DNA of 64,000 nucleotides, from the IMG/VR virus record IMGVR_UViG_3300029858_000001, positions 27,123-91,122 of that record; one strand, written 5' to 3'. The notes beneath the pieces were generated by a model. The model ran no database searches and was not told the DNA's origin. It saw only the letters and a program-made list of their open reading frames with translations. Positions 38,213 through 40,568 of the stretch are shown one piece after another. The first letter of the stretch is position 1. Every line of letters begins with the position of its first letter. Made by a program: the position numbers and the translations under genes. This stretch comes from a virus.

Positions 38213-38464
38213 TTGATTATTAATTTAGATAAAGAAATTATTTACGAATTTGCTCGTTTATCTTTTATAGCTAATAGTCGTAGGACTTCTTATTTGAATA
38301 CCTTTAATAATTATTATTTACAAGAATATATAAAAGCCTATACTGATATTTCAATATTCAAATTTCAATTATTTAAAAAACTTGGTATAACTGAATATAA
38401 TAATTATGAAATTGATGTTGCTAATTTACGAATTATTTTTAAGGAGGAAAATAATAATGATTAA
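38213..38464 (+). CDS. Small rSAM-partner protein (paralog of 16034-16303)
   Basis: Non-ATG (TTG) start. It overlaps the rSAM-5 start. C-terminal similarity to the partner of rSAM-4. Confidence 0.45.
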   Translation: MIINLDKEIIYEFARLSFIANSRRTSYLNTFNNYYLQEYIKAYTDISIFKFQLFKKLGITEYNNYEIDVANLRIIFKEENNND

Positions 38465-39755
38465 AGGTCCATTAGAATATAATAACTATATTGCTACTTT
38501 ATTTGGAGCGCAATATAAAGATAAGAAAGCAAAAATGATAACCTTCCAAGTTACTGATGCTTGTAATTTATGTTGCTCATATTGTTATCAATTCCATAAA
38601 GGTACTCATGCAATGTCTTTTGAAACAGCAAAAAAATTTATTGATTATATTTTTGATTGTAAACACAAGTCTGGTTCTCCATTTTGTATTGACGATACTA
38701 TTGGATTAATTATTGATTTTATAGGGGGAGAGCCTTTTTTACAAATAGATTTAGTTGAATAGATAACTGAATATTTCGAATAGCGCTTTGCTGAAGAACC
38801 TAATGATAGTTGGTCTTTATTCCATGTATATAGTTTTTCATCTAATGGAACATTATATTTTACTGACAAAGTTTAGAAATACATTAAAAAATATAATGGA
38901 CGTATTTCAGTTAGTATTACAGTAGATGGATGTAAAGAGTTACATGATAAATGTCGATTATTTTCTGATGGTAAAGGTAGTTATGATTTAGCTATTGCAG
39001 CTGCACTTGATCAATTAGAAAATTATGGCAATCCAAGCACAAAAATAACAATTAGTCCTGATAATGTAAGTTATCTTTTCGCTGGTTTTAAAAATATGGT
39101 TGAATTAGGTTTTACAGCAATTCATGCTAATTGCGTTTTTGAAAATGTGTGGAATACTGACTATGCCAAAAAATATTATAATTAGCTTAAATTAATAGCT
39201 AATTATATAAAAGAAAATTGTTTACAAGATAAAATTTATTTTATTATTTTTGAACCAGATAATTATAAGCCATTAGATGAAGAAGGAAGACATGCAGCTT
39301 GGTGTGGCACATCAAATAATATGTATGCTCTTGATTATAAAGGTGATATTTATACTTGTATTAGATTTATGGAAAGCTCTTTAAATCAAGAACCTATTAT
39401 TATTGGTAATATAGAACATGGAATTGGTATCACATCTAAAGAACAAAATTGGCTTAATGAATTTAAAAAATGTGAACGTTGTAATATATTCGATAATGAA
39501 TGTTTAAATTGTCCAATAGCAAAGAATTGTTCTTATTGCTTAGGTTGTAGTTATGAATAGACAGGTAAATTATCTTCACATCCAAAAACTATTTGTGAAG
39601 AATTAAAAATTTAGGCGTTAGCTACAATGTATTATTATAAAATAATTAATGATAAAAAATCATATGATGAAATACAAAAATTCTCTTATGATTTTGTAAA
39701 TAATTTAATTCCAGAAGAAGAATATAATTATTTAATAAAATGGAAGGAGGAATAA
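38457..39755 (+). CDS. Radical SAM / SPASM-domain enzyme (rSAM-5), paralog of rSAM-4
   Basis: ITFQVTDACNLCCSYCYQ and FIGGEPFL. SPASM-like CERCNIFDNECLNCPIAKNCSYCLGC. Frame-0 reading is continuous across about 8 TAGs and joins track ORFs 38406, 39321 and following, to TAA at 39753. Confidence 0.8.
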
Positions 39756-39758
39756 TAT

Positions 39759-40568
39759 ATGGCTTGTGATAATGGTGGATGTTCTACCGAATGTTTTAAT
39801 TGCCATAAAGCAGGTGACAATGGCTAGACTGGAGGAGCCGGTAATGGTGGCGCTGGCTGTTCTCAATCTTATTGTATGTCTGGATGTTCTATTTGCTCCA
39901 GTCATTGTGGAGATGGTTGTAAAGGAGGATGCTCGGCTAATTGCGGAGGATGTTCTGGTGGCTGCTCAGGGTGTGATAACAGTTGCTCAGGATGCTCTGG
40001 AACTTGCAGCGGAGGATGTAAAGGAACTTGCACTACTGCTTGTGCTGAACAATGTTCAGGATCTTGTTCCGCAGGGTGTGTTGGCAATTGTAATTATGGG
40101 TGTACAAGTGAAGAAGTTAATAAATTAATAGAAAATTTACATCTTTCTCGTATTGCTGAAAGTGATGATATTAATAACTTAAAAAAGATTATTTTCCGTT
40201 TATTTGAAAATTTAAAAATTAGTACAATATATAAAAATCAAAACTATATTAATGAATTTGGAGATAATACCATAGCTGGATTAGTTAATAATTGGAATGA
40301 AGATGAAGATGGTAAAATGACATTTACCTTGTTATTAAATAAAACATTTGAAACAATTATTACCAATTTAAATAATCTTAATCAAAATCGTACAAATATT
40401 GATTAGAATAAAATGAATCCAATAAAAATTTGGACTGTAGAAATTCCAGATCCAAATGATTTTACTAAAACTAAAACAATTCAATTAAATACAGTAGATA
40501 GAAATGCTGCATTATATTGGATTGAATGTTTAAAAAATATTTATAATTTAGTAGCTCCTGTGAAATAA
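39759..40568 (+). CDS. Cys-rich CxxxC-repeat protein 2 (Cys-rich N-terminal about 115 aa plus non-Cys C-terminal about 150 aa); candidate rSAM substrate
   Basis: RBS GGAAGGAGG. ATG lies 4 nt after the rSAM-5 stop. CSICSSHCGDGCKGGCSANCGGCSGGCSGCDNSCSGCSGTCSGGCKGTC... It reads through TAG at ~39822 and 40404. Confidence 0.65.

Follow-up and report, generated by a model that had tools for sequence, protein, structure and literature searches.

Unit 2, the subject of this report, lies at positions 38213–40568 of a 64,000-nucleotide stretch of viral DNA (the window; positions 27,123–91,122 of the IMG/VR record IMGVR_UViG_3300029858_000001). It is a three-gene operon of a gut phage of ∼185 kb and represents a phage-lineage variant of the CXXX-repeat radical S-adenosylmethionine (SAM) maturase system. 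Its genes encode a small protein, a radical SAM (rSAM) enzyme with a SPASM domain (rSAM-5) and a Cys-rich protein (Table 1). The explanation that we favor, and which we consider as a whole to be probable, is that rSAM-5 staples the neighboring Cys-rich protein, with the small protein as an adaptor, to give a rod that is probably virion-associated or extracellular. A related set of genes around a second enzyme, rSAM-4, is also present in the window and is termed unit 1.

The three open reading frames (ORFs) of unit 2 were all found where an earlier note on this DNA had placed them, provided that TAG is read as a sense codon; their frames are open only under this reading. Each ORF is preceded by a Shine–Dalgarno-like GGAGG/AAGGTG sequence. 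The end of the small ORF and the start of the rSAM-5 gene share an 8-nucleotide overlap (ATGATTAA), which suggests translational coupling of the two, and only three nucleotides separate the rSAM-5 stop codon from the start of the Cys-rich gene. The unit is bounded by an intrinsic terminator that follows the flotillin-like gene upstream and by a hairpin with a U-run downstream (z = −6.6, with equal folding in 0/200 shuffles), and unit 2 is therefore a self-contained operon. A promoter-like TTGACA-N17-TATACT element at 40571–40599 (11/12 match) overlaps the downstream terminator and would serve the next gene (40627–41181); identical hexamers with the same spacing are found at 14675–14703, upstream of the Cys-rich gene of unit 1. 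A near-identical Cys-rich protein (P0001) is encoded on a scaffold of 185,064 bp with identical synteny. It is 100% identical to the unit-2 protein over the C-terminal 154-residue query region and differs from it at a few positions of the N-terminal repeat region.

Table 1. Features of unit 2, unit 1 and the decoding of TAG (positions are those of the window)
Feature	Position	Strand	Evidence or remarks
Small partner protein of unit 2 (83 residues, TTG start, no TAG)	38213–38464	+	ORF
rSAM-5, radical SAM/SPASM maturase (432 residues, six in-frame TAG read as Gln)	38457–39755	+	TIGR04115, 344.8 bits
Cys-rich protein of unit 2, presumed substrate of rSAM-5 (269 residues, two in-frame TAG)	39759–40568	+	ORF, repeat analysis
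Intrinsic terminator after the flotillin-like gene, upstream limit of unit 2	38046–38077	+	14 bp stem and T-run
Hairpin and U-run terminator closing unit 2	40576–40625	+	17 bp stem, −22.2 kcal/mol
Fibre-like protein (144 residues, ends LIWVDTSSSG..KYRTS..TW.I.PVAWS)	14244–14678	+	Directly upstream of the unit-1 Cys-rich gene
Cys-rich protein of unit 1 (241 residues, 29 Cys)	14724–15449	+	Conserved N-domain of ∼100 residues, then CxxxC repeat at residues 118–225
ORF of 191 residues between the Cys-rich gene and the small ORF of unit 1	15462–16037	+	Not a conserved cassette component
Small partner protein of unit 1 (89 residues)	16034–16303	+	Same 8-nucleotide overlap ATGATTAA with the rSAM-4 start
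rSAM-4, radical SAM/SPASM maturase (428 residues, five TAG)	16296–17582	+	TIGR04115, 421 bits, E = 5e-126
Suppressor tRNA, anticodon CTA	21901–21975	+	ARAGORN

The window is phage-like, with a GC content of ∼29% and essentially all genes on the + strand. In-frame TAG codons occur in 39 of its 62 long ORFs, and every ORF ends with TAA or TGA. The suppressor tRNA is part of a tRNA cluster at 18306–22494 (Thr-TGT, Pro-TGG, Gln-TTG, Tyr-GTA, suppressor-CTA, Leu-TAA and Gly-TCC). ARAGORN names it 'Pyl' from its anticodon only; homologue columns point to Gln. Among 19 standard-code homologues, Gln occupies 29% of the cells in the TAG columns of rSAM-4 and rSAM-5, compared with a background of 3.1%, and the two best-conserved of these columns contain Gln in 15/19 and 11/19 sequences. 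Public gene calls give the same unit-2 protein with TAG translated as Gln. As judged from these columns, TAG is Gln in the window, and the suppressor tRNA is needed for translation of rSAM-4, rSAM-5 and both Cys-rich proteins.

By far the best family for rSAM-5 is TIGR04115, described in NCBIfam as 'radical SAM peptide maturase, CXXX-repeat target family' (cutoff 350 bits), with all 359 profile positions covered (E = 7.5e-103). The SAM-cluster motif is C36-x3-C40-x2-C43; these three cysteines and the seven of the SPASM domain (Cys283, Cys301, Cys349, Cys352, Cys358, Cys361 and Cys380) are invariant in five homologues with 35–59% identity. CteB (5WGG) is the closest solved structure (E = 6.5e-18). 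The alignment begins at residue 94 of CteB, which corresponds to residue 23 of the query, and the N-terminal RRE domain is thus absent from the enzyme. TIGR04119 has no match in rSAM-4, rSAM-5 or any neighboring ORF of either unit, and its supply in trans by a neighboring gene was accordingly rejected. No annotated cultured phage with a close relative of the enzyme was found; the best matches are unannotated 'Bacteriophage sp.' contigs (34–39% identity). The rSAM enzymes of jumbo phages (the SPN3US group; ∼26% identity) were also considered and belong to other families.

TIGR04115 is followed in score by PapB, QhpD, CcpM and the SCIFF maturase. PapB, QhpD and the SCIFF maturase form Cys thioethers, while the name of CcpM indicates only a maturase of Cys-rich peptides. 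The PapB family (NF047865, cutoff 340 bits) is matched at 182.6 bits by rSAM-5 and at 174.2 bits by rSAM-4. A different Cys-centered reaction that leaves no cross-link, such as formation of formylglycine or dehydroalanine, C- or S-methylation or epimerization of neighboring residues, would be in keeping with the untested chemistry of the family, with acceptor residues that are not conserved and with the inclusion among SPASM enzymes of anSME, which both enzymes match weakly (47–62 bits). We regard such a reaction as very unlikely, as the best-matching characterized families are the thioether formers, with anSME scoring far lower.

The Cys-rich protein of unit 2 contains 27 Cys residues (10%), 22 of which lie within residues 34–115 and are spaced by four (17 times) or three (five times) positions. 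This CxxxC/CxxC repeat is followed by a C-terminal domain of ∼150 residues outside the repeat (residues 117–269), so that the architecture described in the earlier note, a second CxxxC-repeat protein with an N-terminal Cys region and a C-terminal domain free of such repeats, was borne out. Cys makes up 10–12% of both Cys-rich proteins, compared with 1.6% of the remaining ORFs of the window. In six homologues, 21 of the 22 repeat Cys columns are invariant, compared with seven of the 60 intervening columns, and changes at third codon positions dominate; the frame is therefore genuine, and the possibility that the Cys-rich region is a wrong-frame artifact can be set aside. The repeat consists of 27% Cys, 21% Gly, 16% Ser, 11% Thr, 3% Asp and 1% Glu. 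The intervening residues are typically Ser/Thr (x1), Gly (x2) and Gly/Ser/Thr (x3), yet these positions are not conserved, and the residue at i + 4 is Cys.

These properties could also belong to a protein that is never modified, namely a metal or Fe–S binder, either metallothionein-like or a metal-ladder segment of a fibre, with the rSAM enzyme using it as a cluster or electron donor or acting elsewhere. Only the cysteines and their register are conserved, the small side chains of the repeat are like those of metal–thiolate proteins, Asp/Glu acceptors are nearly absent and the fibre tip of T4 gp37 is lined by metal ions. However, the strict adjacency to a peptide-maturase-type rSAM/SPASM gene in dozens of loci would be left without explanation, the curated family is defined by the pairing of enzyme and repeat, all close characterized relatives modify peptide Cys residues and a dedicated, translationally coupled small partner suits substrate delivery. 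We therefore think it quite unlikely that the protein is simply a metal binder, and we take the neighboring Cys-rich protein to be the presumed substrate of the enzyme.

The small protein of unit 2 belongs to a family of 64 conserved proteins of 43–127 residues (mostly 77–86) on contigs of up to ∼196 kb, and has no match in Pfam, NCBIfam or PHROG. Its AlphaFold2 (AF2) model, with a confidence score (pLDDT) of 92, consists of a strand, a helical hairpin (residues 7–30 and 33–57) and a β-hairpin. A fold search of the PDB returned generic helical hairpins only, and the best hits in BFVD are uncharacterized gut-phage proteins of ∼90 residues (template-modeling scores of 0.73–0.80, E = 5e-3). An identity as PqqD/RRE was rejected, there being no fold match and no family match. 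The small partner always lies directly upstream of the rSAM gene, overlapping its start, and is universal in the class with large substrates. It is the most diverged component of the system, in parallel with the unrelated terminal domains of the substrates. Coupling to the enzyme, universal presence in this class and divergence in step with the substrate domains are the grounds on which we propose that the small protein is an adaptor that replaces the absent RRE.

The small proteins of the two units had been described as paralogous. The unit-1 protein is homologous to the ORF directly upstream of the rSAM gene in prophage loci (BLASTP E values of 7e-13 to 5e-5). Direct comparison with the unit-2 protein gave no support by BLASTP (E = 1.9) or in a first profile comparison (9%), and when 1.84 billion representatives were searched exhaustively by HMMER with the unit-2 profile, the 11 clusters recovered all belonged to the unit-2 type; but deeper profiles (30 versus 14 sequences) aligned with an hhalign probability of 84% (E = 7.8e-6), with 76 of 83 columns colinear, and the position and the 8-nucleotide overlap are identical. 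Remote homology between the two, as far as such alignments indicate, is plausible but weakly supported.

A CxxxC-rich ORF adjoins the rSAM gene in all of the related viral loci (14/14) and in most of the close genome loci, and within the window there is one Cys-rich gene per rSAM. Together with the assignment of both enzymes to the CXXX-repeat maturase family, this upholds the suggestion of a dedicated modification system. To call the system diversifying is likewise fair, since the repeats hold anywhere from 19 to 145 Cys, with freely varying residues between them and different terminal domains. Viral loci with the layout of unit 2 (type A) contain, in order, genes for a flotillin-like protein, the small ORF, the rSAM, the Cys-rich protein, a 184-residue ORF and a PhoH-like protein, and this layout occurs only on large TAG-recoded contigs. 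The layout of unit 1 is termed type B. The closest genome relatives are found in Clostridia, where enzymes of 430–490 residues accompany Cys-rich proteins of 180–650 residues with up to 145 Cys, and 21 genome loci have such large substrates encoded next to the enzyme. As a separate observation, the enzyme of one viral locus (L014, 4804–7146) has 780 residues, with an apparent intein of the Hint/homing-endonuclease type at the third Cys of CxxxCxxC (…CPLRCSY|CVTAG…VHN|CYQ…); its partner protein, of 527 residues, includes 111 Cys.

The genome loci are for the most part tail modules of prophages. At least 16 of the 21 large-substrate loci contain tail hallmarks or a 'WIDT' fibre gene, and none of the short-peptide loci does. 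Where it occurs, this fibre gene ends in W[IV]DT..G..KY...W..V.W[GS] and stops a few nucleotides before the Cys-rich gene. The C-terminal motif found upstream of unit 1 ends the ORF directly before the Cys-rich gene in at least ten genome loci, and a motif of this type also ends the window ORF at 10253–11044. The locus of Anaerobacterium chartisolvens (L029) begins with Baseplate_J (E = 3.8e-56), XkdU-like and tail-collar fibre genes, followed by the Cys-rich gene, two ORFs, the rSAM gene (TIGR04115, 458 bits), an Amidase_3 endolysin and a holin-like gene. A position between tail-fibre and lysis genes is thus seen for relatives of the unit-1 type, and unit 1 itself has the fibre-like gene upstream. 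Two loci (L024, 4103–4363; L095, 7702–7983) contain ORFs of 86–93 residues with signal peptides of the twin-arginine translocation (Tat) type (TRKDFVK…, SRKEFLKK…). These ORFs end in the fibre-type 'W[IV]DT..G..KYW…W' and lie directly upstream of a Cys-rich gene that has no signal of its own. L024 is flanked by TetR and Rnf genes (downstream) and L095 has TatA/TatA/TatC at 3937–5134. The arrangement of these two loci suggests that they are cellular, exported versions of the system.

The genomic setting also bears on whether the system produces a conventional ribosomally made peptide with post-translational modifications (RiPP). The globular domain would then be a long leader in unit 1 or a follower in unit 2, and the Cys-repeat peptide would be cleaved off as a bioactive product (a bacteriocin or signal) for the phage or lysogen. 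In favor of this, the family's annotation is that of a peptide maturase, a sister class of ∼720-residue enzymes with peptides of 54–120 residues occurs in non-phage contexts, and leader-first and follower-last architectures both exist. Against this stand a terminator-bounded operon that has no protease or exporter gene, 'leaders' of 100–150 residues that are conserved and domain-like, repeats with up to 145 Cys in 650 residues and the location of relatives between tail-fibre and lysis genes, all of which make a cleaved RiPP an unlikely product.

The distribution of TAG codons adds an indication of timing. Two blocks of the window, 26230–38464 and 44589–52111, are free of TAG and contain auxiliary and replication genes (SLH protein, MVP-like protein, NADAR, phosphoesterases, flotillin-like protein, topoisomerase II subunits and ligase); TAG is common in the fibre-like, rSAM and lysis genes. 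In recoded phages, recoding is linked to gene timing, and the distribution observed here fits a role of TAG recoding in gating late genes. The rSAM-5 gene follows the first TAG-free block and opens a block of TAG-containing genes that includes an endolysin (CHAP + Amidase_2), ∼2.2 kb downstream of unit 2, and a holin-like gene. Since relatives lie in tail modules and unit 2 opens a TAG block running into lysis genes, we infer a late or structural role, and the product is probably virion-associated or extracellular.

In the mechanism that we propose for the favored explanation, rSAM-5 would bind SAM on the [4Fe–4S] cluster of its CxxxCxxC motif, with two auxiliary clusters on the seven-Cys SPASM domain, and would act repeatedly along the CxxxC repeat (residues ∼34–115, 22 Cys) of the protein encoded downstream. 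Most likely, this would give rise to small thioether rings within the molecule, arranged as a ladder, in which the sulfur of each Cys is bonded to carbon in a residue close by. PapB introduces several local thioether rings into tandem CxxxD motifs (PMC10739248), and serial thioether stapling is, by homology with PapB and the other closest characterized relatives, the CteB/SCIFF maturase and QhpD, the most likely chemistry. Because rSAM-5 is without the RRE domain of its relatives, we propose that the coupled 83-residue helical-hairpin protein would serve as a docking adaptor or chaperone that recognizes the non-Cys domain of the substrate. The mature protein would be a covalently stapled, redox-independent rod on a globular domain.

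Several observations weigh against this explanation. To our knowledge, no member of TIGR04115 has been chemically characterized, and rSAM-5 itself scores ∼5 bits under the curated cutoff of the family. Conservation restricted to Cys is equally expected of a metal-binding protein. The AF2 model of the Cys-rich protein, based on 12 close homologues, has a pLDDT of 34 and is unusable, and the C-terminal domain has no detectable relatives outside its own clade: a word-index search returned relatives only at 76% identity or above, to which L006 and L015 are to be added. The small protein has neither an RRE fold among the PDB matches nor a functional analogue among the BFVD matches. Unit 2 is not adjacent to a fibre gene, and some relatives, such as L024, are chromosomal and not phage-borne. 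Finally, PapB and QhpD use Asp/Glu acceptors, whereas Asp and Glu together account for only ∼4% of the repeat, where the residues between the cysteines are not conserved; the acceptor must therefore differ from that of PapB or be a backbone carbon. A backbone Cα or the Cβ of a small residue is possible. The acceptor carbon cannot be assigned by homology, since the PapB/NxxcB-like clade contains a mixture of Cα- and Cβ-forming enzymes (PMC10288494), and the text of the same paper states no residue rule for predicting a Cα or a Cβ/γ acceptor from its six-residue active-site profile.

The earlier note had viewed unit 2 as a duplicate of unit 1 with an inverted domain order. The two enzymes are homologous from end to end (38% identity over the full length, E = 3e-98), which agrees with their description as paralogues. 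The claim that they share TAG positions holds exactly for one position, while a second is shifted by one residue. Duplication of the whole unit is, however, a misleading description: rSAM-4 is 46–54% identical to prophage enzymes compared with 38% to rSAM-5, which speaks against a recent duplication within the genome, and rSAM-5 groups only with type A enzymes (52–77%), a clade limited to large TAG-recoded phage contigs. The units thus represent two old lineages that are co-resident in one genome. The gene order differs too, since the Cys-rich gene of unit 1 lies upstream of rSAM-4.

The two Cys-rich proteins are alike in the repeat only. The repeat run of the unit-1 protein contains 28 Cys with a dominant spacing of four, and this protein matches phrog_6085 (E = 1e-7) and, only weakly, the target models TIGR04117 and TIGR04114. 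The repeats do sit at opposite ends of the two proteins, as implied by a swapped domain order, but the non-Cys domains are unrelated, with no detectable relation between the C-domain of unit 2 and the N-domain of unit 1 (hhalign 0.2%; shuffle z = −0.28). Homology of the unit-2 C-domain to the unit-1 N-domain or to the L012-type C-domain was rejected, the resemblance of the first 35 residues being at background level. The unit-1-type N-domain is found again at the C-terminus of proteins in L012, L027 and L028 (hhalign 94.6%, E = 6.9e-8), so permutation between N- and C-terminal positions is real within the family and not between the two proteins of the window. For a unit-1-type Cys-rich protein of 174 residues (P0090), a precomputed Pfam match to PF27846.1 was not reproduced by a Pfam search even at E = 10; PF27846 may be a recent Pfam entry covering the family of this protein.

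Other genes close to unit 1 do not recur with the cassette. The ORF at 15462–16037 has no family matches and no significant likeness to the 'mid' ORFs of other loci, many of which have none. A 'mid' ORF of ∼185–190 residues as a fourth core component, with 40627–41181 as its counterpart at unit 2, was consequently rejected. An ORF of 221 residues (17575–18240) overlaps the end of rSAM-4 and has a weakly nucleotidyltransferase-like N-terminus (Pol-beta/MntA-like; phrog_388, E = 9e-8; Pfam, E = 7e-4); ORFs of this type were not found beside the cassette in other loci.

The core of the system is known in kind, as curated entries already cover the TIGR04115 family as well as its association with CXXX repeats. 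The classical system has the same rSAM/SPASM family (483 bits for a classical enzyme, L056, compared with 421 and 345 bits here and 458 bits in L029) and an adjacent target with Cys at every fourth residue. Classical enzymes are fusions of ∼720 residues with TIGR04119, 'CXXX repeat peptide maturase' (233 bits in L056), and act in non-phage loci on peptides of 54–120 residues. In contrast, the phage form has an enzyme of ∼430 residues, no TIGR04119 in the enzyme or its neighbors, a small helical partner and substrates of 180–650 residues with a folded terminal domain (269 and 241 residues here, with a non-repeat domain of 100–150 residues), and is located in tail modules or next to Tat-signal proteins.

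Comparison with better characterized systems reveals further likenesses and differences. PapB, which forms the ranthipeptide freyrasin, is the second-best family match and shares the four-residue register and serial logic, but the matches here are under its 340-bit cutoff and the Asp/Glu acceptor is essentially absent; its substrate PapA is a short leader-containing peptide with six rings, as opposed to a protein with 22 to more than 100 Cys. CteB, a SCIFF maturase (5WGG, 5WHY), has the same rSAM core and a SPASM domain with two auxiliary clusters and forms a Cys thioether, but it carries an N-terminal RRE-like domain that rSAM-4 and rSAM-5 do not have, and its substrate is a single peptide of ∼45 residues with six Cys. 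QhpD (TIGR03906; 115 and 104 bits), acting on QhpC, is an earlier example of a SPASM rSAM enzyme that staples a functional protein subunit and not a secreted natural product; it differs in making only a few Cys–Asp/Glu links per subunit and in its periplasmic enzyme context. The isopeptide chainmail of the HK97 capsid consists of autocatalytic Lys–Asn cross-links. It shares with the present proposal the covalent reinforcement of a virion component, which here would be carried out by an Fe–S radical enzyme on a fibre-module protein. Neither CXXX-repeat maturases nor rSAM-modified phage fibre proteins were found to be described in the searchable literature. The combination of a missing TIGR04119, a small helical partner, protein-sized substrates with folded domains, a tail-fibre or Tat context and two lineages in one TAG-recoded phage of ∼185 kb appears to be an undescribed variant.

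The remainder of the window contains several other genes of interest. Three more rSAM genes are present at 5929–7143 (PapB-like, 176 bits), 8097–9296 (SPASM-type) and 9289–10251 (N-terminal matches of the MoaA/viperin type, with SPASM not established). Among them, 7133–8107 encodes a protein of 324 residues with an N-terminal Tyr/Ser repeat, YSEYSKYSNYSNTYSRYSRYSDYDNYYNYSVYYNYSNYSN, followed by an Ig-like region; the three genes and this protein (5929–10251) may be another maturase–substrate set beside fibre-like genes. A fibre-module protein of 524 residues (12496–14070) has a CBM_4_9 domain and a glycine-rich domain of the ALK/LTK type (E = 1.1e-47), and several PHROGs of unknown function match it. 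The TAG-free block upstream of unit 2 includes a secreted-looking protein with two S-layer homology (SLH) domains (26230–27366; E = 3.9e-23), which hints at a host with an S-layer or an SLH-anchoring cell wall. It also encodes a DUF2828/DUF7788 protein (28652–30190), an 829-residue protein with shoulder and repeat domains of the major vault protein (MVP; 30767–33256) and the flotillin-like SPFH protein (36668–38047; FloT model, E = 3.8e-67).

A wider reading, which we offer tentatively and regard as possible though rather doubtful, is that phages and some Clostridia cells use radical SAM 'RiPP' enzymes to build heavily stapled structural proteins that are fibre-mounted or Tat-exported. A rod with tens to more than 100 serial thioether rings would arise in the cytoplasm, which is reducing and does not allow disulfides to form, and would then be attached to a tail fibre at its distal 'WIDT...W' end; in the cellular version it would be exported by Tat as a folded hitchhiker on the Tat-signal 'WIDT' mini-protein. 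Unit 2 would then represent a second lineage of the system, one specific to phages and carrying a new anchoring domain. For the uncharacterized TIGR04115 family, the system provides a tractable test case in the form of a three-gene operon and of inducible prophages in cultured strains. It also explains how prophage cassettes of this kind may come to be listed by automated tools among 'ranthipeptide' clusters, and serially stapled repeat scaffolds of tunable length could be of use in protein engineering. If the wider reading is true, these would be, among ribosomal proteins known, the most densely cross-linked, and virions would have a new class of post-translational modification. If the favored explanation is right, phage tail-fibre modules in gut Clostridia would hold a stapled component that is absent from structural and proteomic descriptions, and enzymes seen as makers of small antimicrobial peptides would also mature large phage proteins.

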